In this document: positions 29,763 to 53,420 of the stretch, in pieces | Numbering within the stretch: position 1 is the stretch's first letter | Layout of the letters: every line of letters starts with the position of its first letter | From: Patescibacteria group bacterium | Lineage (GTDB): Bacteria; Patescibacteriota; Patescibacteriia; UM-FILTER-42-10 | Assembly (NCBI GenBank): GCA_041666845.1 | Contig: JBAYGC010000006.1 | Location: 6 to 64,005 of the forward strand | Reading direction: 5' to 3' | Length of the DNA: 64,000 nt | Notes under the pieces: generated by a model | The model's database searches: none | Seen by the model: the letters and a program-made list of their open reading frames with translations, nothing else | Told to the model about the DNA's origin: nothing | Translations under genes and position numbers: made by a program

Positions 29763-29907
29763 AACCATTGCGATCACATTTTTGTGTGTCATTTCGAGCG
29801 TAGTTGCGCAAAGCGCGACGGAGCCGAGAAATCTATAGACTTCCCCGCCTCGACTCGCTTCTACTCGTCGACGCGAGGCGGGTCCACTACGGTCGAAGTG
29901 ACAATTG
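29763..29907. repeat. Family-A GC-rich palindromic MITE/REP-like element (inverted, partial copy)
   Basis: Reverse-complement match to 37277-37419. Shares the aaccattgcga TIR, the gtcatttcgagcg...cgctcgaaatgac arms and the core cgcctcgactcgcttctactcgtcgacgcg. Confidence 0.7.
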
Positions 29908-29965
29908 ATGGCACTTGGGGGGGGCATCCCGCTCCCGTTTAAATAATCGTATCGATAACAAACAA

Positions 29966-30871
29966 ATGAAAAAAATCGTCGTAATCCTAGGACCAACCGC
30001 CGCCGGTAAAACCGGCATGTCTTTAACCTTGGCCAAAAAATTTAACGGCTATATCATTTCCGCTGACTCCCGCCAGGTGTACCGTGGGATGGATATCGGC
30101 ACGGGAAAATTGACCAAAGACAAATGGCAAGGGATCAATCACCGGATGATTGACATTATGGACCCGGACCAGGAATTCAGCCTGGCACAGTTTCAGAAAA
30201 CAGTCTTCGCCATCATCAACGAAGAAAAGGAAAAACTGCCTTTCCTGGTCGGCGGTACCGGCCTTTACATCCAGTCTATCGTGGACAATCTGGATATTCC
30301 CAAAGGCGGAATGGATAAAAATCTGCGCAAAGAGCTGGACGAAAAAACTGCTGAGGAACTTTTCAAAATACTGATTCAGCTGGACTATAAATCGGCACAG
30401 GAAATAGATATCAATAATAAACGCCGGCTGATCCGGGCCATCGAAGTTTTCAAAATATCCGGCGAAAAGTATTCGGAACAAAAAGGGAAAAACTCTCCCC
30501 TCGTTCAGACACTCCAAATCGGTATCAAATTATCCCGGGAAGAAATGTATGACCGCATCGACCGGCGAGTGGATGAGATGATCAAAGAAGGTTTGGTGGA
30601 TGAAGTGAAGGCGCTCGGCGACAAATACGGCTGGGACATCCCTGCCATGTCCGCGATCGGCTACAAACAGCTATCCGCGTATTTTAGAAATGAAATATCG
30701 CAAGCTGAAGCGATCGCTCAAATCAAAAACGACTCCCATCATTACGCCAAACGGCAAATGACGTGGTTCAAGCGCGACAGTCGGATAAAATGGGTTACAT
30801 CCGTGGCAGAAGCGGAAGAGCTGGTAAATAATTTCCTGACCAATAAATTCAGTTTTCACGGAATAATATGA
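29966..30871 (+). CDS. miaA: tRNA dimethylallyltransferase
   Basis: GPTAAGKTGMSL P-loop and ADSRQVYRGMDIGTGK. The start was chosen at MKKIVVILGP, downstream of the ORF-track start. Confidence 0.9.
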   Translation: MKKIVVILGPTAAGKTGMSLTLAKKFNGYIISADSRQVYRGMDIGTGKLTKDKWQGINHRMIDIMDPDQEFSLAQFQKTVFAIINEEKEKLPFLVGGTGLYIQSIVDNLDIPKGGMDKNLRKELDEKTAEELFKILIQLDYKSAQEIDINNKRRLIRAIEVFKISGEKYSEQKGKNSPLVQTLQIGIKLSREEMYDRIDRRVDEMIKEGLVDEVKALGDKYGWDIPAMSAIGYKQLSAYFRNEISQAEAIAQIKNDSHHYAKRQMTWFKRDSRIKWVTSVAEAEELVNNFLTNKFSFHGII

Positions 30872-31758
30872 GTAAAGACTTAATATTTGTATTCTTTGGC
30901 GGTACTATGTCCGGTACATTTGGTGCGGGTGTTTCAACAGCACTGCAGAGTCTTAATGTAAATGAAAGGATTGACAGCATCTACGCTACTTCTGCCGGAG
31001 CGCATAATGCTGCCTATTTGATTTCAGAAGAAACGAATATCGGATCAAGTATTTATTATGAAAATCTAATAAATAATGAATTCTTAGAATTAAACAAATC
31101 TAAGTTAATCTATAAAATGCTGGCGAGCTTGTTCACCAGCAATAATAAGCTAAAAAAGATAATTAATATTGATTATCTCATTGACATTGAGAAAAATGCC
31201 AAGAAGCTTGATACTGAAAAGATAGCTAATTCCAATATTAATTTTTTTATTAGGGTGTTCAATGTAAATGAGCGGAAAGAACAATATCTCGACGGTAAGA
31301 GTGAAACACTAATTAAATTAAACGCCACGACTGCAATTGTCCCCTTTTATCCCAGGCAGATCATGATCAATGGTGTTCGATCCTGTAATGGTGATACTTT
31401 ATCAGTAATTATTGATCCTGAATTGGAAAAAATGATTAACGCCAACCCCGACAAAAAGATATATTTCGTATTCAACAACAAGGATAAAGAAAGAAACTCA
31501 TTTGCATATCTAATGAGGGAGTTTATCTGGACATTATTTCTAATGAAATATTTCAAAAGTACGTTTGCATTAAGAAAATTGAAAGTTAAATCCGAGAATG
31601 CAAAATTAAATAAATATCTTAAATATCCGAATATAAAGATAATTGAACCGGATTTCAGCACATCTGTTTTCTGCACAGACAAAAATAAGTTATTAAAAGC
31701 ATATGAAAATGGTTTAGAGAAAACAATGAATATGTTTAGCAAAAACAATGGGGATTAA
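30868..31758 (+). CDS. Patatin-like phospholipase
   Basis: Oxyanion/Gly-rich motif FGGTMSGTFGAG and a nucleophile-elbow-like ATSAG (GxSxG). The gene is very AT-rich, and its start overlaps the miaA stop (ATGA). Confidence 0.7.
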   Translation: MSKDLIFVFFGGTMSGTFGAGVSTALQSLNVNERIDSIYATSAGAHNAAYLISEETNIGSSIYYENLINNEFLELNKSKLIYKMLASLFTSNNKLKKIINIDYLIDIEKNAKKLDTEKIANSNINFFIRVFNVNERKEQYLDGKSETLIKLNATTAIVPFYPRQIMINGVRSCNGDTLSVIIDPELEKMINANPDKKIYFVFNNKDKERNSFAYLMREFIWTLFLMKYFKSTFALRKLKVKSENAKLNKYLKYPNIKIIEPDFSTSVFCTDKNKLLKAYENGLEKTMNMFSKNNGD

Positions 31759-31882
31759 TCTCAAGCAGAATTGTGGTAAAATGCACTATATGCGATATAT
31801 CGCTACTGACTTAGACAAATATTTTTCCGTGAACAGTATGGCGATAATTTACTAATTACTAAATCAATATAATATTACCACT

Positions 31883-32173
31883 ATGAATTTTGACGAGCCA
31901 CCAAAACCGGAAGGATTTAGCGAATATCAACTGGAAATAATGTCCATGATCGAGCGTGGCCGGGCTTCAAGTGAAGAAGAGGCGGTCAAAATTGTGGAAC
32001 TGGCCATGTTTGAGCAACGGATAGAACAATTTTCCGAAGACGATTTAAAACGCGATGCGGACGGCACTTGGCGCACCTTCGAAAATAAGATCAGATCAGT
32101 ATTCCCCGAACTGCCGGAAGACCGACGGAGAGCGATGAAAGCGGCCGTCTCCATGCATTTGTGCGGTATGTGA
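31883..32173 (+). CDS. Small acidic hypothetical protein
   Basis: 96-aa ORF downstream of the patatin gene with no recognised motif. Confidence 0.4.
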   Translation: MNFDEPPKPEGFSEYQLEIMSMIERGRASSEEEAVKIVELAMFEQRIEQFSEDDLKRDADGTWRTFENKIRSVFPELPEDRRRAMKAAVSMHLCGM

Positions 32174-32281
32174 TTTAGTGGTTGTTACAAATCAAAATGG
32201 TGTAATCTGTGGGACTGCCGTCAATAATCCTTGGATTTACCACCCGTCCGGAACATGATTTTAAATAGTAACAATAATCAG

Positions 32282-32307
32282 CTCCCCTCCTTGATAAGGA
32301 GGGGAAG
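32282..32307. terminator. Hairpin ctcccctcc-ttgataa-ggaggggaag
   Basis: 9-bp GC-rich stem between convergent genes. Confidence 0.4.
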
Positions 32308-32358
32308 GACATGCCGGGTTCTTAGATTGAGAAATAATTTCCGGGGGAGGTTTTTAAT

Positions 32359-32402
32359 GTCATTCTCGGACGCCGACATTGGAGGCGATCCGGGAATCCA
32401 TT
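32359..32402. repeat. Family-B structured element copy (gtcattctcgg...gatccgggaatccat)
   Basis: Shares the termini gtcattcycg... and ...gatcgggaatccat with 10006-10033. Confidence 0.45.
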
Positions 32403-32527
32403 ACTTTTTATGGATCTCCGGGTCAAGCCCGAAGATGACAGTTTCTTTATATATAAGTTGCTCAAAATCCATAACAAAAAACAAGCCCTGAAACTCCAGA
32501 GCCTGTTTTGTTATCTAGATTATTATC

Positions 32528-33463
32528 CTATTTCCCCATGAGCCACAAAATGATGGCTTTTTGAATATGCATCCTGTTTTCCGCCTGATCAAAGATTATG
32601 GAGTTGGGATGATCAATAGCGTCACGTGATATCTCATAGCCGACATGACACGGCATACAGTGCATAATTTTGGCCTTGGGGCTGTATTTATCCACGATTC
32701 CGGCATTGAGCTGGAACGGCTTGAATTGTTCAATTCTCTGGTCATATTCCGCTTGGTATTCCGGTTTCACTTTGCCGTCCTCAAAGAATTCCATATCCAT
32801 CCAGGTGTCGGTGTGCACGTAATCCGTATCTTTCATTGCTTCTTCCATATCCACAGTTTTGTGTACCTTCCCTGTTGCTTCCGCCATTCGGTTCAGTTCT
32901 TCATCAACGCTGATTTCGTGTACTCTCGGTGCGGCGAGGTATATATCGATCCCCAGTTTTGCGCAGACCAGTTTCAGGGTATTGCTGACATTGTTTTCAA
33001 TGCCGAGCCAGGTTACTTTTTTGATATTTTCAATTCCCCCGCTGTGTTCCACCATGGTCAGAAGATCGCCGAGTGACTGGCACGGGTGGTATTTTTCTGA
33101 ACAAGCGTCGATGACCGGAATTTTATCAAGTGATGCTGCGACATTTACATCGTTAAAAGACTTGGCGCGGAACATCAGTACATCACCGAAACGCATGACT
33201 GCTTGGATCTCGTCTTTGTAATCGGTTAAGGCGAACTGGGAAGTCCGGCTGTCTAAGAATATCGCGTGTCCACCGAGCTGGGTCATACCGGCTTCAAAGG
33301 AAAGACGGGTGCGGGTGGAAGTCTTCTGGAACAGCATGATCAATGTTTTGTTTTTCAAAACATCCCCGTATCTTTCCGGATTCGCTTTGATCTCCTGCGC
33401 TTTGCGGATTATTTCCAGAATATCCTCTTTAGAATAGTCCTTTAGTGTAAGACAGTGTTTCAT
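32528..33463 (-). CDS. Carbamoyltransferase of the ATCase/OTCase superfamily (ornithine/putrescine carbamoyltransferase-like)
   Basis: STRTRLSFE carbamoyl-phosphate-binding motif and HCMP (compare HCLP). It is distinct from pyrB at 38808. Confidence 0.75.
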   Translation of the reverse strand: MKHCLTLKDYSKEDILEIIRKAQEIKANPERYGDVLKNKTLIMLFQKTSTRTRLSFEAGMTQLGGHAIFLDSRTSQFALTDYKDEIQAVMRFGDVLMFRAKSFNDVNVAASLDKIPVIDACSEKYHPCQSLGDLLTMVEHSGGIENIKKVTWLGIENNVSNTLKLVCAKLGIDIYLAAPRVHEISVDEELNRMAEATGKVHKTVDMEEAMKDTDYVHTDTWMDMEFFEDGKVKPEYQAEYDQRIEQFKPFQLNAGIVDKYSPKAKIMHCMPCHVGYEISRDAIDHPNSIIFDQAENRMHIQKAIILWLMGK

Positions 33464-33523
33464 AGATTTGATTTAAGATTTAAGTTTTAAGTTTTTAGAT
33501 TTTTAAAAATGGATGATAGTATT

Positions 33524-33563
33524 ACCATTGCGACCCGGGCATTTACGAAGTAAATGCATCGGG
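33524..33563. repeat. Family-A element fragment (TIR plus first hairpin only)
   Basis: accattgcgacccgggcatttacgaagtaaatgcatcggg matches 37223-37262. Confidence 0.6.
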
Positions 33564-33570
33564 CTAGTTT

Positions 33571-34380
33571 CTATCCAATTCTTTTTAAATATGCGTCCCA
33601 CGCGACTTGTCTGTACTCCTTCGCTTCCGCTACCGGATCATCCGCGCCGTAAATCCCCCGTCCAACAATAATAATGTCCGAACCGGCGGTGATCACATCG
33701 GACGGTGTGGTGTATTGCTGTTTCAGCGCATCATCCCCGCCACCCAGTTTAACGCCCGGAGTCATTATAATAAACTCTTCGGCATTTAGTCCAGTCAGTT
33801 TACTAAGTTCCTTCACATCTCCGCCATTGCCGATAAATCCGATAACAAAATCAGCATATTCTCGCGCTAATACTACCGCTTTTTCGGTATATTCATCGGT
33901 TGCCAGGTTTCCTTTGGAACTCATCTGCGCAAGTAAGATTAATGCCCGCTCTTTCCCGCTTTCCCTTGCTACCTCCTGCAGTCCCTCGATTATTCCGGGA
34001 CCCGGGACAATATGCGCATTTACCATATCCGACCATTCCACTATTTTATAAATCCCCCCGCCATACTGCATTTTGACTGTGTTGCCGATATCGGCGAATT
34101 TACGGTCCTCAAAGATTAAAAAATTGTGCTTTTTAGCGAGGTTTGATAATTCTGTGATAAATCCATCGTTAAACCCCTCAATGATATCTATATGCGTTTT
34201 TAATATGCAAAGTTCCGGTCCGATCGTGTCCGCCAATTTTAATACTAAATCGGCCTCCGGCTCATCAATAGCCAGTGCGAGGTTGGTTTGTTTCTGTTCC
34301 ATTAACCGCAGTAATTTTACGGCCACCGGGTTTTTCGCATTTTCTGCTCTTTGAAGATATGTTTGATATTGTTTATTCAT
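33571..34380 (-). CDS. pyrF: Orotidine-5'-phosphate decarboxylase, eukaryotic (URA3)-type
   Basis: Collinear, high similarity to S. cerevisiae URA3 as I remember it: KQTNL, LCILKTHIDII, FLIFEDRKFADIGNTVKMQY, IMTPGV, GSDIIIVGRG, WDAYLKR. Confidence 0.85.
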   Translation of the reverse strand: MNKQYQTYLQRAENAKNPVAVKLLRLMEQKQTNLALAIDEPEADLVLKLADTIGPELCILKTHIDIIEGFNDGFITELSNLAKKHNFLIFEDRKFADIGNTVKMQYGGGIYKIVEWSDMVNAHIVPGPGIIEGLQEVARESGKERALILLAQMSSKGNLATDEYTEKAVVLAREYADFVIGFIGNGGDVKELSKLTGLNAEEFIIMTPGVKLGGGDDALKQQYTTPSDVITAGSDIIIVGRGIYGADDPVAEAKEYRQVAWDAYLKRIG

Positions 34381-34409
34381 AATTATCTATAATTTAACTC
34401 AGCGCAACT

Positions 34410-35084
34410 TTACTGGGAAACACCGTACCTGACAAGATATTCTTCCATTCTATCTTTAGTGTCGTCATCCAGATATATTTGACCGTCGATTTTCTGGTTG
34501 TGCAGAACTTCAATCACTTCCCGTACTGTGACAATCGCCTTAACCGGAATGCCTTGTGACTTTTCAAACTCGAGCAATGCATCATTTCCATTGCTATCCT
34601 GTTCCTGACGGTTAAAGGCAATCACCAACCCGGCAAAACTGACATTTTCAAATCTTGCTTTTATCATATTAACCGCATCCTCTTTGGTTTTTCCGGTGGT
34701 CATCACATCATCAATCAAAAGTATTTTCTGGCCTGGTGCCGGCTCATAACCGACAAAAGCACTTTTATCGCCGTAATCTTTGGCTTCCTTACGGTCAAAA
34801 AGATATCCTTTATCCATGCCGAAATCTTTCGCCAGTGCCAGCGAGGCGGCTACCGCCAAAGGAATCCCTTTGTAAGCCGGTCCGAAGATCACATCAAAAT
34901 CCACTACTTCTTCACGAATCAGTGCGGCGTAGAAATATCCCAATTTATAAATCGATGCTCCAGTATTAAAATTACCCGTGCTAAAAAAATATGGTGAAAT
35001 GCGCCCGCTTTTTAATGTAAACTGTCCGAACTTCAAAGCTTCCGATCTAACCAAGAATTCAATAAAATCTTTTTTATAACTCAT
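34410..35084 (-). CDS. pyrE: Orotate phosphoribosyltransferase
   Basis: FTLKSGRISPYFF, DVIFGPAYKGIPLA and the PRPP motif LLIDDVMTTGKT. Confidence 0.9.
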   Translation of the reverse strand: MSYKKDFIEFLVRSEALKFGQFTLKSGRISPYFFSTGNFNTGASIYKLGYFYAALIREEVVDFDVIFGPAYKGIPLAVAASLALAKDFGMDKGYLFDRKEAKDYGDKSAFVGYEPAPGQKILLIDDVMTTGKTKEDAVNMIKARFENVSFAGLVIAFNRQEQDSNGNDALLEFEKSQGIPVKAIVTVREVIEVLHNQKIDGQIYLDDDTKDRMEEYLVRYGVSQ

Positions 35085-36360
35085 ATTTTATCTCCTTACC
35101 TTTAAATTGTTCATTAATTTCGAGCGAATTGTAAACAATATTGCCGCCGATGATCGTGGCGGTTGGCCAGCCGGTCAGCATTTTTCCGGCAAACGGCGTC
35201 CAGGCGCATTTAGATTCCATTTCCTCATTGATCACTTCTTTTTCCATTTGCATATCAAGCAGAACCAGATCCGCATCATAACCCTCATCGATTTTTCCTT
35301 TATGCTTGATTTTAAATATACGGGCGGGATTTTCACAGACGAGTTCGACAACTTTCTTCAAATCAATTCTGCCTTTACTCACCTCGTTCAATAGTAATGG
35401 TAACATAGTTTCCACCCCCGGAACACCGGCCGGCGCCTGCCAATAGGGCTGCATCTTTTCATCCCTGGTGTGCGGGGCATGGTCCGTAGCGATGGTATCA
35501 ACCGTGCCATCCGCAATCCCGCGCCACAGTGCCAATCGATCCGACTCGGGTCTGAGCGGCGGGTTCATCTTAACCCAGTTACCCTGTTTGCCATATTCAC
35601 TGCTGTTCAAGAATAAATGGTGCGGTGCGACTTCGCAGGTAACCGGCAGACCTTTGGCTTTGGCTGATTTGATCAGTTTCAATTCGCCGGCAGTGCTGAC
35701 ATGGCAAAAATGCACGCGCGCTTTGGTTCGCTCGACAATAGCTAAAATATTTTTAACGGCTAATATCGCAGCTTCGGGCGCTCTTACTATAGTATGAATT
35801 ATCGGGTCATCCGTCCCGCTGTATTCTTTACTCTTTTCCTGAATAAAAGCTTCATCTTCAGCATGAACGAGAAACAGTCTTTTTGCTCCATTAAATATTT
35901 TTTTGATATCATCGATTCTATCCACCAAAAGATTTCCTGTTGATGAACCAAAATATATTTTTATTCCGGCAATGTTTTGAGCTGAATTTAGAAAGCTCAG
36001 GTTATCAGTTGTTGCTCCAATATGAAATCCATAATTAACTACGCTTTTTTTCGCCAATTCCCGTTTCAAATTCAAAGACGCTTCGTCGATAATCGGCGGG
36101 TTGTTGTTCGGCATATCTAGAACTGTGGTGACGCCCCCTTTGACCGCCGCGCGCGATCCGGTCAGCCAATCCTCTTTATGCTCCGCACCGGGTTCTCGGA
36201 AATGCACATGCCCGTCAATTATTCCTGGCATTAAAATAAGCCCAGTACAGTCGATAATTTCTTTTTCTAAATCTTTGCCAATTTTGTTGATTACTCCGCC
36301 TGAAATATGAACATCTACCTCCCTTGATTCCAGGATGCAATTTTTCAGCGTGATATCCAT
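35074..36360 (-). CDS. pyrC: Dihydroorotase (long type)
   Basis: Amidohydrolase metal ligands GIIDGHVHFREPG and DHAPH. It sits in a pyr operon context. Confidence 0.85.
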   Translation of the reverse strand: MDITLKNCILESREVDVHISGGVINKIGKDLEKEIIDCTGLILMPGIIDGHVHFREPGAEHKEDWLTGSRAAVKGGVTTVLDMPNNNPPIIDEASLNLKRELAKKSVVNYGFHIGATTDNLSFLNSAQNIAGIKIYFGSSTGNLLVDRIDDIKKIFNGAKRLFLVHAEDEAFIQEKSKEYSGTDDPIIHTIVRAPEAAILAVKNILAIVERTKARVHFCHVSTAGELKLIKSAKAKGLPVTCEVAPHHLFLNSSEYGKQGNWVKMNPPLRPESDRLALWRGIADGTVDTIATDHAPHTRDEKMQPYWQAPAGVPGVETMLPLLLNEVSKGRIDLKKVVELVCENPARIFKIKHKGKIDEGYDADLVLLDMQMEKEVINEEMESKCAWTPFAGKMLTGWPTATIIGGNIVYNSLEINEQFKGKEIKYEL

Positions 36361-36362
36361 AA

Positions 36363-37199
36363 TTAAAAATCCTTTTTCACTCCGGAGCCGGATCGGTGAA
36401 ATTTCCCAAATTCAGAAATTAACCTCGCTCTTTCAGAATCAACCACCGGCCCTTTGACGCACATCGGTTCACCCGTACCGTCCACGGAACAGGCACCGCA
36501 AACACCCATACCGCATTTCATATAGCGTTCAATGCTGATCTGACAATTAATACTGGCAGTTTCACATAAATCAAATACCGCTTTTTCCATCATTTCCGGA
36601 CCGCAGGTATAAACTAAATCAATTTTTTCTTTATTTAATATTTCCTGCAAGGGACCTGTAACCATACCTTCAATTCCGAATGATCCGTCGTTGGTGGTTG
36701 TGTATATTTTTGTCTTTAAATTATTTATTCTGTTTTGAAATAGCAAATACTCTTTTGACCGCGCTCCGTTGATAAAATGAATCTCCACCCCGTCTTTGGC
36801 TAATTGCTCCGCCATGTTTAATAATGGCGCTACACCGTATCCGCCACCGACCATCACCACTTTTTTTGCATCTTTATCTTTCCAAAATCCATGACCATAC
36901 GGCCCACGGATTCCTACCCGGTCCCCGACTTTCAGTTTAAAAAGCTCTTCGGTAAACGGACCGACTTTCGCGATTGCCAAGCCCAGTTCATTTCCGGTAT
37001 CGTACGCAATGCTGAAAGGCTTCTCATCCAGTCCGGGAATCCAAAGCATGACAAACTGACCGGCTTGTGAATTCAAAGTATGCTGAAAATAAAATGTGTC
37101 TACATTCTCATTTTCTTTTTCCCGCCGGACAATCGGCATCATTAACGGTTTATCCAATTTATTGATCCAATGATTCATAAATAATCCCCTGATTACCAA
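36363..37199 (-). CDS. pyrK: Dihydroorotate dehydrogenase electron-transfer subunit
   Basis: FAD/NAD-binding fold plus a C-terminal 2Fe-2S Cys cluster (CGMGVCGACSVD). The true start may be an internal Met. Confidence 0.8.
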   Translation of the reverse strand: MVIRGLFMNHWINKLDKPLMMPIVRREKENENVDTFYFQHTLNSQAGQFVMLWIPGLDEKPFSIAYDTGNELGLAIAKVGPFTEELFKLKVGDRVGIRGPYGHGFWKDKDAKKVVMVGGGYGVAPLLNMAEQLAKDGVEIHFINGARSKEYLLFQNRINNLKTKIYTTTNDGSFGIEGMVTGPLQEILNKEKIDLVYTCGPEMMEKAVFDLCETASINCQISIERYMKCGMGVCGACSVDGTGEPMCVKGPVVDSERARLISEFGKFHRSGSGVKKDF

Positions 37200-37222
37200 T
37201 TACTTTTTATGATAGAAACCAG

Positions 37223-37419
37223 CACCATTGCGACCCGTGCGTTTACGAAGTAAATGCATCGGGGACACAATCCCGCTACTAATTGTCACTTCGACCGTAG
37301 TGGACCCGCCTCGACTCGCTTCTACTCGTCGACGCGGGGAAGTCTATAGATTTCTCGACTTCGTCGCGCTTAGCGCGGCTACGCTCGAAATGACACATAA
37401 AAACGTGCTCGCAATGGTT
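37223..37419. repeat. Family-A MITE-like element, most complete copy (10-bp TIRs accattgcga / tcgcaatggt), inserted between pyrK and pyrD
   Basis: TIRs at 37223-37232 and 37410-37419. Internal perfect hairpins: gcgtttac-gaag-taaatgc, gtcacttcgaccg...cgctcgaaatgac, and the core cgcctcgactcgcttctactcgtcgacgcg. Confidence 0.75.
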
Positions 37420-37433
37420 ACATCTATTACCAA

Positions 37434-38351
37434 TTACTTCTTATGTGCTAGCCCGATTATTTCATTAATTGATTCAAAACCCTCCGCTTGCATGTATTCC
37501 TTAATCTCATCACAAATCAGTGTGAATACTTCCGCTCCGCGGTAATACACCGCCGTTCCTACCTGAACCGCGGATGCACCCAACATCATCATTTCAATCG
37601 CATCTCTACCTGTGGTGACTCCGCCGATGCCGATTACCGGAATTTTTACGGACTGATAAATATCGGAAACACACCGCGCAGCAATCGGCCGGAGTGCCGG
37701 TCCAGTTACTCCGCCCATACCGAAATGCAGGATCGGTTTTTTAGCATAGATATCGAGATGAATCCCGGGTCCCATGGAGTTAACTGCAGAGATCGCATCC
37801 GCACCGCCCGCTTCCGCTGCCTTCGCAACTTCGCCGATCGGTTGGCTTTCCGGGGAAACTTTGATAAATAATGGCAGTTTGGTTTTTTCCCTGATTCTAC
37901 GCGTTATCTCTTCGGTTGCTTTCGGCGTTCCCTGCCCGGCCATTGTTCCGTACCCCGGAGTATGCGGGCAGGATAAAACCGCTTCCACCGCGGAAAATTC
38001 ATCATTCAGAAAATTCTCCGCCATATAGGCAAACTCATCCGCATCTTTGCCGATAATGCTGGCAATAATCGGCGCTTTTAATTCTTTCAGATTAGTAAAC
38101 TCCGCTTTCGCTTTGTAGAGGCCCGGATTGGAATATCCGACCGCATTCATAAAACCGCCCTCGATCGCGTGCATATTCGGTGCGTCATGCCCTTTGCGTT
38201 CTTCCCGGCTGATGGATTTGATCACACAACCACCGGCGCCGTTTTGGATCACGTATTTCAAAGAATCCCTGGTGACACCAAGAATCCCCGACGCTAAGAT
38301 GGTCGGATTACTGAATTTTATCCCCGCTAGATTAATTGATAAACCTTTCAT
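37434..38351 (-). CDS. pyrD: Dihydroorotate dehydrogenase catalytic subunit (class 1B)
   Basis: TIM-barrel DHODH motifs (GGV, SCPHTPG). PyrK is the partner. Confidence 0.9.
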   Translation of the reverse strand: MKGLSINLAGIKFSNPTILASGILGVTRDSLKYVIQNGAGGCVIKSISREERKGHDAPNMHAIEGGFMNAVGYSNPGLYKAKAEFTNLKELKAPIIASIIGKDADEFAYMAENFLNDEFSAVEAVLSCPHTPGYGTMAGQGTPKATEEITRRIREKTKLPLFIKVSPESQPIGEVAKAAEAGGADAISAVNSMGPGIHLDIYAKKPILHFGMGGVTGPALRPIAARCVSDIYQSVKIPVIGIGGVTTGRDAIEMMMLGASAVQVGTAVYYRGAEVFTLICDEIKEYMQAEGFESINEIIGLAHKK

Positions 38352-38354
38352 ATA

Positions 38355-38804: not shown

Positions 38805-38807
38805 AGT

Positions 38808-39728: not shown

Positions 39729-39740
39729 ATTTTGTCCTTA

Positions 39741-39768
39741 GGATAAAAAAAATCCCTTTTTCAGGGAA
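39741..39768 (-). terminator. Candidate leader attenuator: short hairpin plus U8 about 20 nt upstream of the pyrB start
   Basis: Minus-strand tccct-gaaaa-aggga followed by tttttttt. A 16-codon mini-ORF (MINNHTDNLFRKYIAR) ends 5 nt before the hairpin. Confidence 0.35.
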
Positions 39769-41398: not shown

Positions 41399-41410
41399 GA
41401 GGTAATTGTA

Positions 41411-42714: not shown

Positions 42715-42722
42715 GGTAAACC

Positions 42723-44167: not shown

Positions 44168-44289
44168 TATATTAATACTTACTATTTGTAATAATCTCCA
44201 CTTTGACTATAGAGCGAGTAAACGTTCGACTGAGACTCACACCGACTATTCGCCACCTAATTCCTAACAACTAATCCCTAGACCCTAAC

Positions 44290-44712: not shown

Positions 44713-45251
44713 TCGACCAGTTTATCTAACTGTTTATAAAAATCTTCTTTTGTTCCGTCGTTGTCAATAACCACATCCGCCTTTTCAATCATATCCTGTA
44801 TGTGAACCTCTGCTTCCGCAGCACTGTCTTTTTGGAATTCGTCCCAGGTTTTCTCCTCATCTCCCGGATTTTCCGCCCTCTTTACCAGTCGCTCAAAGCG
44901 CGTTCTGGCATCAACCTGTAGACTGACTAATTTAAATCCTGGGATCGCCTTTAGATGTTCAATGTCCGTCCAGCGTCGGACACCGTCAATCACAATTACA
45001 TCGCCTTCAGCTTTTTTGACATCTTCCGCAATGGCTTTTGATAAAATATCCTGCGAAAAATTTTCCCTCAGTACCTGGGAAATATTCTGCAGATTTTCCC
45101 TGGTCTGTGGCAGATACACGCGATCCGCAACATCCCGCAGAATAGTCGAAAAACGGAAACTTTCGGCTCCGTATTTTTCGCTCAGATATTTGCAGGCAGT
45201 ACCTTTACCGCTTGCGATCAACCCTGTAAATCCAAGAACTTTCTTACTCAT
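44709..45251 (-). CDS. P-loop nucleotide/nucleoside kinase (CoaE/dNMP-kinase-like)
   Basis: GFTGLIASGKGT Walker A. 180 aa. Embedded in a dNTP-metabolism operon. Confidence 0.55.
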   Translation of the reverse strand: MSKKVLGFTGLIASGKGTACKYLSEKYGAESFRFSTILRDVADRVYLPQTRENLQNISQVLRENFSQDILSKAIAEDVKKAEGDVIVIDGVRRWTDIEHLKAIPGFKLVSLQVDARTRFERLVKRAENPGDEEKTWDEFQKDSAAEAEVHIQDMIEKADVVIDNDGTKEDFYKQLDKLVE

Positions 45252-45264
45252 TAACGTTATGTAT

Positions 45265-45807
45265 TTATTTGCTTGTCTTCATCTCCACATCCCCTTCGTC
45301 CGGTTTCATCACTTCTATTTCTTCCGCAAATATTTCCTGTAATTGCTTCTGCCATTCGATATTCTCCTGATAAACTTCCACCTCTATCCCCGCCTCTTTC
45401 AGAAAATCCACGACTTTAGAATTACGGTATACTTTTCCCATAACCACTTTTTTAATACCGGCCGCAATAATATATTTGGTGCAATGAATACAAGGGCTGT
45501 ATTTCATATACAGTATCGATCCTTGAGTATTTGTTCCTGAGATTGTAGCAGCCTGCAAGATAGCATTGTGTTCGCCATGAATAGTTCTCACGCAGTGACC
45601 CTCTTCCATCAGATGCCCTATATCATCGCAGTGCGGTAATCCGGGAGGCGAACCGTTATAGCCGGTGGAAATAATTCTCCGGTCTTTAACCAAAACAGCG
45701 CCTTGATAAAGACGATCGCAAGTACTGCGGGTTCCGATAATTTTTGCAATCGCCATGAAATAATCATCCCATGACGGGCGAACATGCTTTTTGGTTTCTT
45801 TTTCCAT
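45265..45807 (-). CDS. dCMP deaminase (CMP/dCMP deaminase zinc-binding family)
   Basis: HGEHNAIL (H-x-E) and SPCIHCTKYI (PCxxC). Confidence 0.85.
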   Translation of the reverse strand: MEKETKKHVRPSWDDYFMAIAKIIGTRSTCDRLYQGAVLVKDRRIISTGYNGSPPGLPHCDDIGHLMEEGHCVRTIHGEHNAILQAATISGTNTQGSILYMKYSPCIHCTKYIIAAGIKKVVMGKVYRNSKVVDFLKEAGIEVEVYQENIEWQKQLQEIFAEEIEVMKPDEGDVEMKTSK

Positions 45808-45831
45808 ATTCTTCTCCCTAAAGTTTATGGC

Positions 45832-46515
45832 TTAGGCAACGACTTTAACGCTCGGCCCCATAGAACTGGCCAGATGGACCTGCTTGATGTATGTGCCTTT
45901 CAGTGATTCCGGTTTAGCTTTCTTAATCGCATCCATCAATACCGCGTAGTTCTCTTTCAATTTTTCGTCATCAAAGGAAACTTTCCCGATCATCTGGTGA
46001 ATGTTGCCGGAATCATCCGAACGGTACATCGCTTTGCCGGAAACTAATTCGGAAATAGTTTTTTTCACATCTTTAGTTATGGTATCTGTCTTTGGATTCG
46101 GCATTAAACCTTTCTGTCCCAGAATTTTGGCGATACTGCCCAGATTTTTCATGATCTGCGGTTCAGCAATAGCAATGTCAAAATCGCATTTTTTGGTGGA
46201 TTTTATCTCCTTAATCACTGATTCATCGCCGATAATATCCGCACCCGCCTCTTTCGCCTCTTTTTCTTTTTCCGGAGAAACGAAAGCAGCAATCCGGAGC
46301 TTCTTACCCAGACCGTGAGGAATCAAAAACGTACCTCTGATCATTTGATCCGCTTTTTTGGTATCAATCCCCAGACTGATATGCACTTCTACCGATGAAT
46401 CAAACTTGGTGGTAGATGTTTCTCTGATAATTTTAATCGCTTCCGCAATCGGATACACTTTAGTTTTGTCGATTTTCTTGCTTGCCTCGATGTAACGCTT
46501 GCTCTTTTTGGTCAT
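45832..46515 (-). CDS. rplA: 50S ribosomal protein L1
   Basis: 227 aa with typical L1 sequence. Confidence 0.95.
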   Translation of the reverse strand: MTKKSKRYIEASKKIDKTKVYPIAEAIKIIRETSTTKFDSSVEVHISLGIDTKKADQMIRGTFLIPHGLGKKLRIAAFVSPEKEKEAKEAGADIIGDESVIKEIKSTKKCDFDIAIAEPQIMKNLGSIAKILGQKGLMPNPKTDTITKDVKKTISELVSGKAMYRSDDSGNIHQMIGKVSFDDEKLKENYAVLMDAIKKAKPESLKGTYIKQVHLASSMGPSVKVVA

Positions 46516-46576
46516 TGTATTTTCCTTCGTGGTACAAACCCCCGGTTCTACCGAGGTCCCACAAGTTAATTATTAT

Positions 46577-47458
46577 TTATTCTTCTAATTTTTTATGAGT
46601 TTCCTGTTCTTTGCGCACTGTCCGCCAGTGGTACCAGAATAATGGAATCCCTAGCAGGATAAACGGCAGATTACGTGCAGCTTCGGTTTGCGTGTTATCA
46701 AATGATGTTTGGGATAGTTTCTGCCAGTTATCATAATCAACAATCCAATCCTTAGCGGTGGTTACAGTTGCTGCGTCTAACTGACATTTATCCGCGCAAT
46801 CAATAATACTCTGAACAGAATTCTTTTCCAGTACCAAGGATGTTTGCTGATCAACTACCTTCTGGTTTAATCTGTCAGCCTCTGATGCAGCGGGAAAAAT
46901 CCATGTTTTAAGTACAAGATTAATCATAATACCACCGGCAATAACAAACATCAGTAAAGCCCCCAGAGAAACGAGGTAGAAATAAATCGGGCGGATTACA
47001 GTAGCTGCACCTTCTTTTTTAGCATCTTTCTGGACAGAACGGAAATGAATGATAAATATCGGCAACGCGATAATCAGGAAAGAGAGTGCCGCCACCGCTG
47101 CTTGTGAATTTTGATAGTTCGGATTATTCGCTGTTTTCTGCCATGCTGTATAACTTTCTTCCCACGAACTGATCATCGTCTTATCTTCATCTGTAATTTT
47201 GCATTCATCTGTACAATCGATATTATCGACAGTTACTCCTACTTTCGGGTCTAACTCATTGAAATAGAGAGTTGGCGGCGGACCAGTACGGTATGGGTCA
47301 TTATTGGCATCAGTTAAAACCCATGTTTTCAAGCCCAGATTAATCAAGGCGATCAAAGAACCGACGACCAGTGCTAGAGTAATAAAAGACGCTAGATAAA
47401 AATATATGTGTCTGATTATATTACCCTTTTTTTGTTTATTCGATTGTTGTTCTTCCAT
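46577..47458 (-). CDS. Tandem-duplicated membrane protein (DUF5671-like) inserted between rplK and rplA
   Basis: Two internal repeats, each of the form IRxIYFYL...INLxLKTW - Cxx(D/A)xC - W..W - TM helix (IPxFxxHxR). Confidence 0.6.
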   Translation of the reverse strand: MEEQQSNKQKKGNIIRHIYFYLASFITLALVVGSLIALINLGLKTWVLTDANNDPYRTGPPPTLYFNELDPKVGVTVDNIDCTDECKITDEDKTMISSWEESYTAWQKTANNPNYQNSQAAVAALSFLIIALPIFIIHFRSVQKDAKKEGAATVIRPIYFYLVSLGALLMFVIAGGIMINLVLKTWIFPAASEADRLNQKVVDQQTSLVLEKNSVQSIIDCADKCQLDAATVTTAKDWIVDYDNWQKLSQTSFDNTQTEAARNLPFILLGIPLFWYHWRTVRKEQETHKKLEE

Positions 47459-47480
47459 GGGTTTATTTTCGAATAATTAA

Positions 47481-47903
47481 TTATTCAATAGTTATACCCA
47501 TTTGACGGGCGGTGCCTTCAATAATTTTCATTGCACCTTCGATGTCATTAGCGTTCAGATCCGGCATTTTCTTTTCTGCAATTTCTTTGATCTGGGCTTT
47601 GGTTACTTTGCCGACTTTGGTGATTAGCGGATTACCGGATCCTTTTTGGATTCCTGCGGCTTTCTTTAATAACTCGGCAGCTGGTGGAGTTTTTAGGATA
47701 AATGAATATGTCCGATCTTCATAAACGGTTATTTCAACCGGGGTAATATCTCCACCAAGATCCTTGGTTTCATTATTAAACTTGGTGCAGAATTCCTGGA
47801 TATTTAAGCCGTGCTGACCTAAAGCCGGTCCGACCGGAGGCGCTGGATTTGCTTTGCCTGCCGGAATTTGTAATTTGATGACTGTTTTAATTTTCTTAGC
47901 CAT
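47481..47903 (-). CDS. rplK: 50S ribosomal protein L11
   Basis: [19 protein letters not shown]. Confidence 0.95.
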
Positions 47904-47995
47904 TGTTAGATAGATTTATGTTATAAGATTTAAGGTTGAGTTAACAGGTCAAATACATCTAGAAGCAATGCATGATCTGAAAACCTTTAATACTA

Positions 47996-48541
47996 CTAAA
48001 GCTTCTTAATCTGTAGTGAATCCAGCTCGGTAGGCGTTTCCCGGCCGAACATGGAAACCAGTACTTTGACTTTTCCGCGGGCATCATCAACTTCCGAAAC
48101 TTTTCCTTCCATTTCTTTGAAAGGACCATCGGTAATGCGCACTGGATCACCAACCGCCACATCAATCTTGTATTTCGGCTCTTCAATTCCCATTCTCTTC
48201 TGCAGATTCTTCACTTCGTCCTCTGAAATTGGCGTCGGAGTTGTACCGGTTCCCACAAATCCTGTTACGTTCGGCGTATTTCGCACGACATACCATGATT
48301 CATCGGTAACGATCATTTCCACCAACACATAACCCGGGAATATTTTTTCGGTTACTATTTTACGCTTTCCATTTTTTATTTTTATTTTCTTTTCGGTAGG
48401 AATTAAAACGTTGAAAATTTTATCCTCCATATCCATCGATTCGATTCTTTGTCGAAGATTTCGGGAAACATTTTCTTCATATCCCGAATAAGTATGTAGA
48501 ACATACCAGCGTTTTCCATGTTTTGCAGTTTGTTTTGGCAT
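47996..48541 (-). CDS. nusG: Transcription antitermination factor NusG
   Basis: NGN domain (WYVLHTYSGYE) and a KOW domain. Confidence 0.9.
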   Translation of the reverse strand: MPKQTAKHGKRWYVLHTYSGYEENVSRNLRQRIESMDMEDKIFNVLIPTEKKIKIKNGKRKIVTEKIFPGYVLVEMIVTDESWYVVRNTPNVTGFVGTGTTPTPISEDEVKNLQKRMGIEEPKYKIDVAVGDPVRITDGPFKEMEGKVSEVDDARGKVKVLVSMFGRETPTELDSLQIKKL

Positions 48542-48544
48542 AGC

Positions 48545-48739
48545 TTATTTAATTAGTTGCTCAAGCCCTAAATTCAATAGATAATCGGCCAGTCCCAAAA
48601 ACACGGCCACTGATATACTGACCCCGATCACAATCAAAGTATGTTTGATCGCCTCTTTGCGGCTGGGCCAGGTAACTTTCCTTAGTTCGTCTTTCGATTC
48701 CTTAAAGTATCGAAATATCTTATTGTTGGTTACTGTCAT
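48545..48739 (-). CDS. secE: Preprotein translocase subunit SecE
   Basis: Single C-terminal TM helix and the motif KVTWPS. Start taken at the internal Met (MTVTNN...). Confidence 0.7.
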   Translation of the reverse strand: MTVTNNKIFRYFKESKDELRKVTWPSRKEAIKHTLIVIGVSISVAVFLGLADYLLNLGLEQLIK

Positions 48740-48846
48740 TTTTTGGTCTTTAAAAAGCCCTTGTCGGGCTCTGATTTTTCTCAAATAAATCATACCCGAA
48801 ATCGAAATAATTTGCAAGTGCTTCGTTTGAAATTTGTGAAATTACG

Positions 48847-50943
<2,097 letters not shown>

Positions 50944-50960
50944 CTACCTTTCTTCAAGTA

Positions 50961-53348
50961 TTATTGTGCTCGAATTTGAGCGTTAAATTTTTGTTCTAAT
51001 GATTTAATTATCTGATTATGAAATTTTTGCGCCTCCACCAGCGAAAGTGTCCGGTCATTCGCGCGGTAATCCAAATGAAGCGCCATACTTTTCTTGCCTT
51101 CACCGATCTGTTTGCCGATGTATACATCAAACAGCTCCACCCGGGTGAGTAATGCTCCGCCGGATTGCCAAACAACTTGCTCAATTTCTTTATATAATAC
51201 AGTCTGGTCAATAACAAACGCTACATCCAGCATTACGCTGGGATATTTTGGCAACACATTAAATATTTTTAGATTTGTCAGGTAGTCCAGAAACACCACC
51301 AGAAAATAAATCGGCCGGTCCAGATCAAAATTTTTCGCGACTGCAGATGATAGCTGTGACAGTGTCGCCAGCACTTTACCGTTATGGGTAAATTTTAATG
51401 ATTTCCGGGTGCTGTACGCATCCCAATATGGGCAATCACTTGCACCAGCTTTTTCCAACAGGTCACTCTCATATTGCACATTCTGTTCTTCAAAAAGTTG
51501 TTCCAAAACCCCCTTCAGTTCAAAAAATTCCCTGCCGTCTTCTGACCCTCCGGTGATTACTGCACTTAATAACGGCGCCTCGTGAGTTTTACCGCCCGCC
51601 TTTAGAGAATACACGTTGGACAGTTCAAACAATTTCAGATTTTCTGTTTGCTTCAGATTTTCGTGAATATTATTCAGAAGACCTGACAGCAGTTCGCTTC
51701 GCATATACTGCTGATTTGAGGCAAGCGGGTTGGCGATTTCAACATGATCTGCGGTTTTCAAACCCAGTTTCTTAATATTTTCACCGCTGGTAAAGGAATA
51801 ATTATAGGCTTCAGTAAATCCCCTTCCTTTAAAGTAGGTCTTTATCTGTCTGGTTCTAGATAGATATTTCGGCTCGACCGGCGGTTCTAAATTACCGTTT
51901 GGCACAGATTCGCCCAGTTTATTGTAGCCGTAAATTCTAGAAACCTCTTCAATAATATCTTCCGGTATTTTCAAATCAGGTCGGTATGTCGGCACCAATA
52001 CTTCCAGCGAATTTTTCCCTCGCTTGGAAACCTCAGCACCCAGTGAGTTCAATATAGAAATAATTTCTTTGACCGGAATTTTAATTCCAAGAATATTCTC
52101 AATCCGGTCGGTACTGACTGTAATTTTGGCAGGTTCAATCTGCCATTTACCGATATCAACTATTTGTTCCAATATAGCGTCCGGCAACATTTCTTTCAAC
52201 AGGAAATATGTATATGTTAAATTTGCCAATGTTTGATTGGGATCAACTGTCTTTTCGTAACGGCCGACCGCGTCTGTTCTGTGCCCCAGCTTGCGTGAAG
52301 TACGGCGGATTGTAATTGGATCAAAGGTTGCTGCCTGCAAAACAATTGTCGTAGTTTTATCGCCGATTTCGCTGTTCGCACCGCCCATGATTCCGGCCAG
52401 GTCGATTATCCTTTCCGCATCTTCAATAATCAGCATACCTGATTCAAGATTCCAATTTTTTCCGTCCAGTGTTGTCACTTTTTCACCGTTTTTTGCCGGA
52501 CGGACTGTCATTGTTTTCCCTTGAATTTTATCATAGTCAAAAGCGTGTAAAGGCTGACCGCGATCCAGCATAATGTAGTTTGTCAGATCCACAATATTAT
52601 TAATTGACCGTACACCGACTGATTCCAAACGTTTCTGCATCCATTCCGGGGAAGGTCCGATTTTGATTCCGCTAATCACCAGCGCTGAATAACGCGGGCA
52701 CAATTTTACATCCTCAACTGCCACATTAACAACCTGATTCTTTTTCGCTGTCTCTTTAATATCGTAAAATTCCTTTTTGAGTTTCAATCCCGTAATCGCT
52801 GCAATCTCCCGGGCAACACCAAAGTGCCCCATTAGATCCGGCCGGTTAGCCAGTACATCCAAATCAAGCACCACGTCATCCAATCCTAACTCCCTAACAA
52901 CATCCGTCCCAATTTTCGCCTTGTTGTCCAGAAACAATATTTCATGATCACCTTTTTTCGGCAAACCAAGTTCTTCCGCCGAGCAGATCATCCCGCAGGA
53001 TTCCACGCCTCGGATATTCGCTTTTTTCAGTTCCATACCGTTCGGCAGTTTCGCTCCCACCATCGCGAATGGAACTTTCCTACCAAGAGATTCCGGCTTG
53101 ATATTAACTCCCCCACAAACAACTTCAAATTTTTCTTTACCATTATTAACCGTTACCAGATTCAGTTTGTCGGCATTGGGATGTTTTTTGATACCTAAAA
53201 TTTCCGCGACCACCACTTTAGAAATATTACCGCCGGCTTTTTCAATTGTGTTCACTTCAACTGAACGGATCGTCAAATCATCTGCCAGTTTTTCTGGAGT
53301 TGTCTGGATCGCAACATATTCTTTTAACCAATTAAGTGAAACTTTCAT
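50961..53348 (-). CDS. pheT: Phenylalanyl-tRNA synthetase beta subunit
   Basis: 795 aa with the typical N-terminus MKVSLNWLKEYV, B3/4, B5 and FDX-ACB domains. Confidence 0.95.
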   Translation of the reverse strand: MKVSLNWLKEYVAIQTTPEKLADDLTIRSVEVNTIEKAGGNISKVVVAEILGIKKHPNADKLNLVTVNNGKEKFEVVCGGVNIKPESLGRKVPFAMVGAKLPNGMELKKANIRGVESCGMICSAEELGLPKKGDHEILFLDNKAKIGTDVVRELGLDDVVLDLDVLANRPDLMGHFGVAREIAAITGLKLKKEFYDIKETAKKNQVVNVAVEDVKLCPRYSALVISGIKIGPSPEWMQKRLESVGVRSINNIVDLTNYIMLDRGQPLHAFDYDKIQGKTMTVRPAKNGEKVTTLDGKNWNLESGMLIIEDAERIIDLAGIMGGANSEIGDKTTTIVLQAATFDPITIRRTSRKLGHRTDAVGRYEKTVDPNQTLANLTYTYFLLKEMLPDAILEQIVDIGKWQIEPAKITVSTDRIENILGIKIPVKEIISILNSLGAEVSKRGKNSLEVLVPTYRPDLKIPEDIIEEVSRIYGYNKLGESVPNGNLEPPVEPKYLSRTRQIKTYFKGRGFTEAYNYSFTSGENIKKLGLKTADHVEIANPLASNQQYMRSELLSGLLNNIHENLKQTENLKLFELSNVYSLKAGGKTHEAPLLSAVITGGSEDGREFFELKGVLEQLFEEQNVQYESDLLEKAGASDCPYWDAYSTRKSLKFTHNGKVLATLSQLSSAVAKNFDLDRPIYFLVVFLDYLTNLKIFNVLPKYPSVMLDVAFVIDQTVLYKEIEQVVWQSGGALLTRVELFDVYIGKQIGEGKKSMALHLDYRANDRTLSLVEAQKFHNQIIKSLEQKFNAQIRAQ

Positions 53349-53359
53349 TTTTTTGTGAT

Positions 53360-53413
53360 GTCACTTCGAGCGAAGCCGAGAAGTCTAGATTTCTCCACTA
53401 CGGTCGAAATGAC
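53360..53413. repeat. Family-A element, minimal copy (gtcacttcgagcg...ggtcgaaatgac hairpin) between pheT and pheS
   Basis: Arms 53360-53369 and 53404-53413, with the aagtctagatttctc core shared with 37340-37356. Confidence 0.6.
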
Positions 53414-53420
53414 CTGCTTG

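Follow-up and report, generated by a model that had tools for sequence, protein, structure and literature searches.

The closest described relatives of the repeats reported here are the CGTC-tagged repetitive extragenic palindromes (REPs) and the SRM motifs of SsnA nucleases. Our repeats lie in a 64,000-nucleotide stretch from a Patescibacteria group bacterium (GenBank assembly GCA_041666845.1, contig JBAYGC010000006.1, positions 6 to 64,005 of the forward strand), called the window below. The most complete of them separates the genes pyrD and pyrK. CGTC-tagged REPs have a CGTC or TGTC/CCTC tag, an 8-9-bp stem that starts with AT, a 4-5-nt loop, and a 3-nt tail near CCA. They occur mostly as head-to-head dimers with the tags outside, between unidirectional or convergent open reading frames (ORFs), and neither a dedicated transposase nor an association with a Y1 transposase was found for them. 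Members include dRS3 of Neisseria and RPE-4/6 of Rickettsia (Di Nocera, De Gregorio & Rocco 2013, BMC Genomics 14:522; PMC3733652). An extended dRS3 (NTS, CGTCATTCCCGCGMAVGCGGGAATCYRG) and related SRM motifs flank genes for SsnA, a 94-aa single-domain GIY-YIG protein. SsnA binds the motif as single-stranded DNA (ssDNA) only and cuts just upstream; the GTC upstream of the palindrome and the C after it are critical. The NTS-ssnA-NTS arrangement was likened by its authors to an insertion sequence (IS) (Chenal et al. 2025, Nat Commun 16:2388; PMC11893778).

We found that the repeats in the window are a known kind of element; what is new is the phylum, a variant tag, and heavy nesting. Judged by sequence comparison, they are structurally of the CGTC/SRM class and have been gained, replaced, and lost among close relatives. 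We think it likely that they are a mosaic of REP-type hairpin repeats, similar to the bacterial interspersed mosaic elements (BIMEs): selfish, non-autonomous DNA that is inserted at gene junctions and is probably recognised by a GIY-YIG protein of the Ssn type.

Hairpin units in the window

The repeats are real and far above chance. The first-pass annotation had reported a complete element at 37.2 kb, an inverted partial copy at 29.8 kb, and fragments at 33.5 and 53.4 kb. All are present, and we refer to them as c37 (37224-37419), c29 (29763-29937), c33 (33524-33563), and c53 (53359-53414). Identity between c37 and c29 is 90-100%: 29763-29854 is 90% complementary to 37328-37419 (92 nt), and 29869-29906 is 95% complementary to 37281-37318 (38 nt). 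Between 33524-33563 and 37224-37263 the identity is 95%. The 10-bp terminal inverted repeat (TIR) described for c37 is exact, the decamers ACCATTGCGA and TCGCAATGGT (37224-37233 and 37409-37418) being 100% complementary. ACCATTGCGA occurs 5 times in the window, with 0.16 expected, and GTCAYTTCGASCG, an arm of the B units described below, occurs 6 times, with 0.29 expected. The elements are GC-rich (0.50-0.54, vs 0.43 for the window) and palindromic, and their description as a REP-like family holds. Folding in silico gave -97 kcal/mol (z = -6.4) for the transcribed strand of the 234-nt pyrD-pyrK spacer as RNA, and -46 kcal/mol (z = -5.5) for the spacer as DNA. The elements are not assembly artefacts, because a contig from ENA (L168) that spans c37 and c29 is identical to the window across 22,528-43,463, and a Logan short-read contig (L001, from SRR18595301) carries the first 127 nt of c37 at 1761-1888, ending inside the hairpin that we call hpC.

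c37 is a mosaic of two related families of hairpin repeats, not one MITE (miniature inverted-repeat transposable element). Monomers of the B unit have the form TGTC-A(C/T)TTC...GAA(G/A)T-CTA and are paired as head-to-head dimers. The C unit has the form AACC-ATTGC...GCAAT-CCC, and its outer arms are what had been read as TIRs. A monomer is about 29-50 nt long. It starts with an unpaired tag of 3-4 nt (TGTC/xGTC, or AACC in the ATTGC class) and a 5-bp stem that begins with AT. Beyond the stem come a tandem G.A mismatch, one C-G or G-C pair, and an apex, for which some units have a C(GNA)G mini-hairpin and others a nested GC hairpin that varies; the unit ends with the closing strand and a C. C(GNA)G mini-hairpins are unusually stable in ssDNA. 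Two monomers with their tags outward make a head-to-head dimer, as in REPINs.

Units also sit in the loops of other units. c37 is a C-type dimer that holds a B-type dimer, which in turn holds two small GC hairpins. Each B monomer in c37 and c29 has an extra GC-rich hairpin, either hpC (35-39 nt) or CGCGC-TTW-GCGCG. The four sites had been taken as copies of one element, but c33 consists of a C-type end and one further hairpin (hairpin A) only, and c53 of a bare 56-nt B dimer only. Likewise, one of the three internal hairpins reported as perfect is so (CGCGC-TTA-GCGCG), and the others have a G.T pair or a bulge. The hpC copies of c37 and c29 are in direct orientation (34/39 identities; 97% in another alignment), while their surroundings are inverted (24/24 and 72/81 identities). 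Either hpC was inserted independently, or it was flipped between its own inverted arms. The units at the four sites are as follows.

37224 to 37419, no strand assigned: c37, complete mosaic between pyrD and pyrK, a C-type head-to-head dimer of which one half holds a composite B dimer
37223 to 37274, plus strand: complete C-type monomer, with tag CACC, stem ATTGC (37227-37231), hairpin A, closing strand ACAAT (37267-37271), and tail CCC
37234 to 37263: hairpin A, CCCGTGCGTTTAC-GAA-GTAAATGCATCGGG, nested in the complete C-type monomer
37284 to 37395: composite B head-to-head dimer in c37, tags outward, TGTC-ACTTC..GAAGT-CTA on the plus strand and TGTC-ATTTC..GAAAT-CTA on the minus strand
37305 to 37339, plus strand: hpC, GC-rich hairpin inside the left B monomer of c37, flipped relative to its host element
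37365 to 37377: perfect hairpin CGCGC-TTA-GCGCG, nested in the apical loop of the right B monomer in c37
37394 to 37419, minus strand: truncated C-type monomer, AACC, ATTGC-GAG, and small hairpin CACGUUUUUAUGUG, with the B dimer in place of its inner arm
29763 to 29937, plus strand: c29, a single C-type monomer (AACC-ATTGC-GAT, small hairpin at 29775-29788) with a composite B dimer (29787-29903) in its loop
29924 to 29937: closing strand of c29, imperfect (GCAT-CCCG); c29 is without a second C monomer
29844 to 29882, plus strand: hpC copy in c29, 4 nt longer, with outer arms of 9 perfect bp
33524 to 33563, plus strand: c33, C-type remnant (ACCATTGCGA and hairpin A) at the junction of pyrF and an OTCase-like gene, with conserved flank GATAGAAACTAG
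53359 to 53414: c53, bare B head-to-head dimer at the pheS-pheT junction, two 29-nt monomers that overlap at TCTAGA

The c53 monomers read TGTC-ACTTC-GAGCGAAGCCGA-GAAGT-CTA on one strand and GGTC-ATTTC-GACCGTAGTGGA-GAAAT-CTA on the opposite one. A scan of the window based on this grammar yielded two related elements that were missing from the first-pass annotation. Both lie beside dnaK.

10005 to 10082: CGTC-class head-to-head dimer on the downstream side of dnaK, AGTC-ATTCCCGA-CCTGA-TCGGGAAT-CCA ... TGG-ATTCCCGT-CTCCA-CGGGAAT-GACC
12151 to 12194, minus strand: single B-like monomer TGTC-ATTCT..AGAAT-CTA with a nested hairpin, on the upstream side of dnaK

The dimer at 10 kb is of near-canonical NTS/CGTC type, with ATTCCCG stems, an 8-bp stem, and a 5-nt loop. 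A perfect 30-nt GC palindrome, GGAAGGTGCGACGTCGACGTCGCACCTTCC, follows it (10089-10118), and the monomer at 12 kb is nested in a short palindrome, GGGGAGCGAAATGT / ACATTTCGCTACCC (12134-12205).

Across the set, all four B monomers of c37 and c29 and one of c53 carry the tag TGTC; the other c53 monomer carries GGTC, and the C-type monomers carry AACC, CACC, or TACC. Tails are CCA in the 10-kb dimer, CTA in B units, and CCC in C units. B and C stems start with AT (AC in two B monomers) and consist of 5 bp, the tandem G.A, and 1-2 further bp, closed by GNA triloops or nested hairpins. The head-to-head arrangement is found in c53, in the B dimers of c37 and c29, and in the 10-kb dimer. Five of the six sites lie between co-directional genes, and c29 lies between divergent genes.

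Turnover among relatives and the wider family

We compared the window with contigs of three relatives (L132, L133, and L137), obtained through their PyrD homologues. The pyrD-pyrK junction had a different state in each of the four sequences.

L137 (PyrD identity 84%): pyrD and pyrK overlap (TAATG)
L132 (PyrD identity 95%): gap of 53 nt, made up purely of about eight GTAATTN heptamers
L133 (PyrD identity 93%): gap of 195 nt, a C unit with ends and flanks exactly as in c37 (AGATGTA-ACCATTGCGAG ... CTCGCAATGGT-TGCTAGCTTCTATCCTAAAAA) and a different interior
Window (query): gap of 255 nt

Given these four states, the junction was tight ancestrally, was then colonised, and has since been remodelled or lost. 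On this comparison c37 is a genuine insertion at an unstable site, and the TAATG overlap in L137 bears out the earlier proposal that it splits two genes that once abutted. The complete C unit of L133 reads ACCATTGCGAG-[small GC hairpin]-CGTG-GCAATCCCG-loop-CGGGATTGC-[small GC hairpin]-CTCGCAATGGT.

Other junctions have also changed. In L133, the dut-thyA and pyrF-OTCase junctions also hold C-type dimers, and at the latter L132 has a remnant like c33. The TIR is thus conserved in other copies and in relatives, with three C-type elements in L133 ending ACCATTGCGA...TCGCAATGGT. The gap between miaA and its neighbour is 36 nt in L137 vs 245 nt in the window, so c29 is apparently an insertion as well. 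Similarity was not detectable between the 189-aa ORF beside c29 and the 183-aa ORF that L137 has there, so miaA, miaB, and the pyr genes are the sole basis for synteny with L137. The pheS-pheT junction in relatives holds other insertions (a bAvd-like gene, or AT-rich repeats), so there is no empty site that would set the boundaries of c53. The bAvd-like gene, also similar to the 23S-rRNA-IVP family, encodes 119 aa and lies where the window has c53 (L141 11124-11483, from the 95% relative). The same contig, as L132, carries an RVT_1 reverse-transcriptase gene (17916-19232), and a diversity-generating retroelement may be nearby.

The genes at these sites are in the following order on the minus strand: pyrB (39728-38808), pyrI, pyrD, c37, pyrK, pyrC, pyrE, pyrF (34380-33571), c33, and the OTCase-like gene. 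c53 lies within the 72-nt pheS-pheT spacer, and c29 between miaA and the divergent 189-aa ORF. Among named homologues, those closest to PyrD and PheS carry the organism name "Patescibacteria group bacterium", and those of Candidatus Kerfeldbacteria are 73-75% identical. The features that border c37 are these.

37434 to 38351, minus strand: pyrD, dihydroorotate dehydrogenase catalytic subunit, upstream gene
36363 to 37178, minus strand: pyrK, electron-transfer subunit, downstream gene, with ATG at 37178 and ribosome-binding site AGGGGA; the same 271-aa call is made in L168
37192 to 37211: flanking direct repeat copy 1, ATTACCAATTACTTTTTATG, derived from heptamers (GTAATTG GTAAT on the minus strand), just upstream of the pyrK ribosome-binding site
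37426 to 37445: flanking direct repeat copy 2, ATTACCAATTACTTCTTATG, which matches copy 1 at 19/20 positions and overlaps the pyrD stop codon

Heptamer arrays are present at the pyrD-pyrK site in L132 and L133 as well. More generally, AT-rich tandem arrays of heptamers (GATTTAA; GTAATTN / TAATTAC) fill spacers and flank C-type elements (window 33470-33502; L132 10919-10971; L133 4686-4716, 4860-4875, and 15670-15700), and they are similar to the short heptamers repeated in tandem in cyanobacteria.

Related units are widespread. A scan of metagenome contigs with the 20-nt B arm GTCAYTTCGACCGTAGTGGA gave at least 118 loci, in contigs of 27-61% GC, and a looser monomer pattern gave 24 viral contigs with B monomers. 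Identical 27-nt arms occurred in contigs across that whole range of GC. Among the metagenome arms listed, the tag was CGTC in 88 of 129 and TGTC in 34. Among the matches listed, 268 of 374 GTCA...CGA starts had a perfect 5-nt closing strand in the next 8-30 nt, and a C came right after the palindrome in 257 of 268 monomers. The stems fell into covarying classes: ATTTC/GAAAT, ATCTC/GAGAT, ATTGC/GCAAT, and ATTCC/GGAAT. Where the left monomer of a dimer is ATTTC/GAAAT, its partner on the right kept its own complementary pair (GAAAT-ATTTC 28/30 and GAGAT-ATCTC 20/23, again among the matches listed). Covariation in the local stem does not depend on the partner monomer, so what is conserved structurally is the hairpin of the monomer and not the long stem of the dimer. 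In a gap-free alignment of 33 short monomers, selected by their 5-bp stem (which is thus 100% paired by construction), the pair beside the tandem G.A (columns 12-19), which played no part in selection, was C-G in 22 and G-C in 8.

Some metagenome monomers (CGTC-ATTGC-GAG..GCAAT-CT) have the same grammar as the C-type monomer. Variable hairpins after ATTGC-GAG are common in other genomes, which makes nesting a trait of the family. A scan of species-representative genomes, a collection that does not include the source species, for ACCATTGCGA followed by the B arm gave 8 matches, about 3 of them by chance in coding sequence. Independent juxtapositions of C-like and B-like units were found in metagenome-assembled genomes (MAGs) of Dialister, Anaerolineales, and Acidobacteriota. 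In Dialister MAGs (Negativicutes; L002 1600-7900 and L008 2200-6700), long arrays of B/C-like monomers that repeat every ~289 nt enclose a GIY-YIG gene, and such arrays in a Firmicute show the reach of the family. No further B or C copies were found in the ~18 kb of source contig beyond the window. A full-text search of the literature for the arm sequences returned primers and other chance matches only, and a protein search with the open frame of the element gave no candidates for spurious ORFs over other copies.

Proposed mobilisation and alternative explanations

We screened 118 B-bearing loci for recurrent ORFs, clustering those common to at least three loci and inspecting the top clusters. 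Besides ubiquitous families, the screen gave a GIY-YIG protein of about 95-100 aa (Pfam PF01541, E ~1e-14). No transposase was evident in the inspected clusters, and none is among the annotated genes of the source contig. The GIY-YIG gene lies inside or abuts B-type dimers in five loci (L066, L047, L076, L002, and L008). L066 (3887-4611) is a tandem array of four B-type dimers with a 95-nt period. In its third dimer, a 99-aa GIY-YIG gene replaces the 6-nt central loop, and the gene-bearing dimer shares its left and right ends with the 85-nt "empty" dimers next to it. This array looks like a pair of autonomous and miniature elements. L047, L002, and L008 have the GIY-YIG gene bracketed by monomers 550-735 nt apart with their tags outward, and in L076 the GIY-YIG stop codon abuts a monomer. 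By their layout, B-bearing loci elsewhere thus reproduce, for the family of the window, the published motif-gene-motif architecture.

The source contig also encodes a single-domain GIY-YIG protein, of 86 aa (L130 2175-1918, 6.6 kb outside the window; Pfam GIY-YIG, 1e-14), for which NCBIfam gave no specific model. Its gene is inserted at the 5' end of a tRNA-Gln gene (1852-1925, minus strand), with duplication of a target of about 24 nt, and is preceded by the hairpin GTTC-ATTCCG-TAAAA-CGGAAT. A similarity of hpC to this hairpin was considered and was unsupported by BLAST. The surrounding region (L130 1400-2300, which lies 6.5-7.3 kb upstream of the first position of the window) has the appearance of a hot spot for integration: the 5' end of the tRNA gene and sequence upstream of it are duplicated, and so are the tRNA-Gln 3' end and a ~110-nt downstream segment, around another insert. 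The same part of the contig shares an identical 19-mer ending in a start codon, ATTAATTTCTAACGGGATG, with the window (L130 1290-1308; window 1236-1254). It stands upstream of two unrelated genes (corA-like and phosphoribosyltransferase), possibly as a 5' leader or a context for ribosome binding that both have in common.

Based on these results we suggest that non-autonomous units would be copied as ssDNA hairpins into intergenic junctions, and that new units may land preferentially in the loops of resident units. The likeliest recogniser or mobiliser would be a small single-domain ssDNA nuclease of the Ssn-type GIY-YIG family, or another hairpin-specific enzyme. c37 would have been inserted into a formerly overlapping pyrD/pyrK junction and be read through by transcription as a large stem-loop. 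Translational coupling of pyrD and pyrK would be lost, with an independent ribosome-binding site in its place. The very stable RNA/DNA stem-loop so added could protect the upstream mRNA, as a side effect and not as the purpose of the element.

Several observations weigh against this interpretation. GIY-YIG genes were found in 7 of ~126 B-bearing loci and in 0 of 24 viral loci with B monomers. B or C units do not flank the 86-aa GIY-YIG gene of the candidate phyla radiation (CPR) contig, so the GIY-YIG link is circumstantial in the source genome. The published SRM motif, HGTCWYN(0-2)YYVSBRHN(0-5)WNVSBRGN(0-2)RNCYNB, had 0 matches in the window under conditions in which the NTS control matched, and single monomers (both B monomers of c53, the metagenome B arm, and the C type of L133) all failed to match it. 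Compared with CGTC-tagged REPs, the B stem has 5 bp, a tandem G.A, and a GNA mini-hairpin or long nested hairpin, vs 8-9 perfect bp, and the C monomers have AACC, not CGTC or TGTC. The collections searched held no other copy of the composite 197-bp element, and copy number holds for the ~82 kb of source genome that was examined.

A more far-reaching version is possible, and we put it forward tentatively, as doubtful. The mosaics would record active, hairpin-loop-targeted ssDNA transposition in CPR, with Ssn-type GIY-YIG proteins mobilising CGTC-class REPs, gene-bearing dimers as autonomous elements, 55-90-nt dimers as their miniatures, and units inserting into resident loops either way. Insertion into loops in either orientation would explain both the flipped hpC and the nesting of B in C. 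If this were true, the system would spread across phyla, as the 27-nt arms shared by contigs of 27-61% GC suggest, and operon junctions would be remodelled in genomes that have been regarded as almost devoid of mobile DNA.

Our results might also indicate that the repeats are REPs or REPINs mobilised by a REP-associated tyrosine transposase (RAYT, of the IS200/IS605 Y1 type), as are the GTAG-tagged REPs of Proteobacteria, and not by a GIY-YIG protein. The architecture is the same, with hairpin monomers, inverted dimers, mosaics, intergenic location, and no target duplication, and the gain and loss seen between close relatives at a single site would suit precise ssDNA excision. However, the tags are xGTC/AACC and not GTAG, the inspected top clusters of the recurrent-gene screen included the GIY-YIG family and no evident transposase, no Y1 gene is among the annotated parts of the contig, and no Y1 transposase goes with CGTC repeats according to Di Nocera et al. 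(PMC3733652). We consider this explanation unlikely.

c37 might instead be a dedicated cis-regulatory RNA of the pyr operon, an attenuator or an element for processing or stability, that was selected as such; an influence on mRNA had been proposed for it. E. coli REPs are known to stabilise upstream mRNA, c37 is placed inside an operon, and its transcribed strand folds with the high stability given above. No terminator-like or promoter-like (sigma-70-like) sites were predicted in 37100-37500, and c37 is therefore probably co-transcribed in the operon. The window had no Rfam match at the gathering score, and 37150-37480 had one chance match only (E = 5). The same modules occur at the unrelated miaA, pheST, and dnaK junctions, neither the 84% nor the 95% relative has the element in its pyr operon, and recognition of the SsnA type is of ssDNA, not RNA. 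Since the modules are at unrelated junctions and absent from close relatives, any effect on mRNA is most simply a by-product, and we regard a dedicated attenuation or mRNA role as improbable.

About as improbable, and if anything slightly more so, is a classical MITE, that is, a deletion derivative of an IS with 10-bp TIRs that was moved by a DDE transposase with target-site duplication. The exact TIR and the 19/20 direct repeat around c37 (37192-37211 and 37426-37445) would fit. The TIR, however, is the tag and stem of a hairpin monomer built, like CGTC-type REPs, as tag-stem-loop-stem-C, and at c33 and c29 this sequence is found alone. Target-site duplications are absent at c29 and c53, and the direct repeat at c37 is part of GTAATTN arrays. 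We dropped that repeat as a long target-site duplication, as heptamer arrays hold the same site without the element in L132. The internal modules vary independently, and no IS that ends in this way was found. Weakest of all, and very improbable, is a recombination switch in which the c29 and c37 copies, with their ~145 nt of inverted homology at 90-100%, invert the 7.3-kb miaA-pyrK segment: an inversion would disrupt the pyr operon, L137, which has neither copy, shows the identical gene order (pyr -> OTCase ... <- miaA ... <- miaB), and the sole independent assembly across both copies (L168) agrees with the window.

Significance and comparison with known systems

The genomes of CPR/Patescibacteria are about 1 Mb and are usually called streamlined. 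Close relatives here differ at operon junctions by the insertion, replacement, and loss of hairpin repeats, consistent with selfish DNA of the REP/BIME type being active even in CPR genomes. The GIY-YIG genes in dimers, with end-sharing "empty" neighbours, fit the notion that CGTC-class repeats and Ssn-type nucleases form a pair like an insertion sequence, and they lend comparative support to the recent proposal to that effect (PMC11893778). The repeats also matter for the annotation of MAGs. They create spurious ORFs and break short-read assemblies, as at the Logan contig that ends inside c37.

Bacterial MITEs (e.g., Correia/NEMIS, RUP, and Nezha) are likewise small, non-coding, multicopy sequences with inverted ends, located between genes or in operons. 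They have IS-derived ends and fixed target-site duplications; in contrast, the elements of the window are modular hairpin units with no consistent duplications. The REPs, BIMEs, and REPINs of E. coli and Pseudomonas are characterised by a GTAG tag and a link to Y1 transposases, neither of which is seen here. Like the elements of the window, they are hairpin monomers in inverted pairs and mosaics, intergenic and often in operons, and they can be transcribed as stable stem-loops that protect upstream mRNA.

The NTS/SRM-SsnA system differs in that its degenerate motif is unmatched in the window and in that the CPR GIY-YIG gene stands without flanking B or C units. It has a role in natural transformation in Neisseria. 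The likenesses are a GTC upstream, a palindrome that starts with AT, and a C directly after it; in addition, a single-domain GIY-YIG gene of ~95-100 aa lies between outward-facing B monomers in other phyla, and the source contig itself encodes such a protein of 86 aa.

The closest match is to the CGTC-tagged REPs. Beyond the stem and tag differences given above, Patescibacteria are outside the five phyla of PMC3733652. The B tag (TGTC), the stem starting with AT, the short tail starting with C, the head-to-head dimers, and the location all agree. Units nested in other palindromes and several families in one genome are further points of likeness, and the dimer at 10005-10082 fits nearly exactly, with its 8-bp stem (ATTCCCGA/TCGGGAAT), 5-nt loop, and CCA tail.

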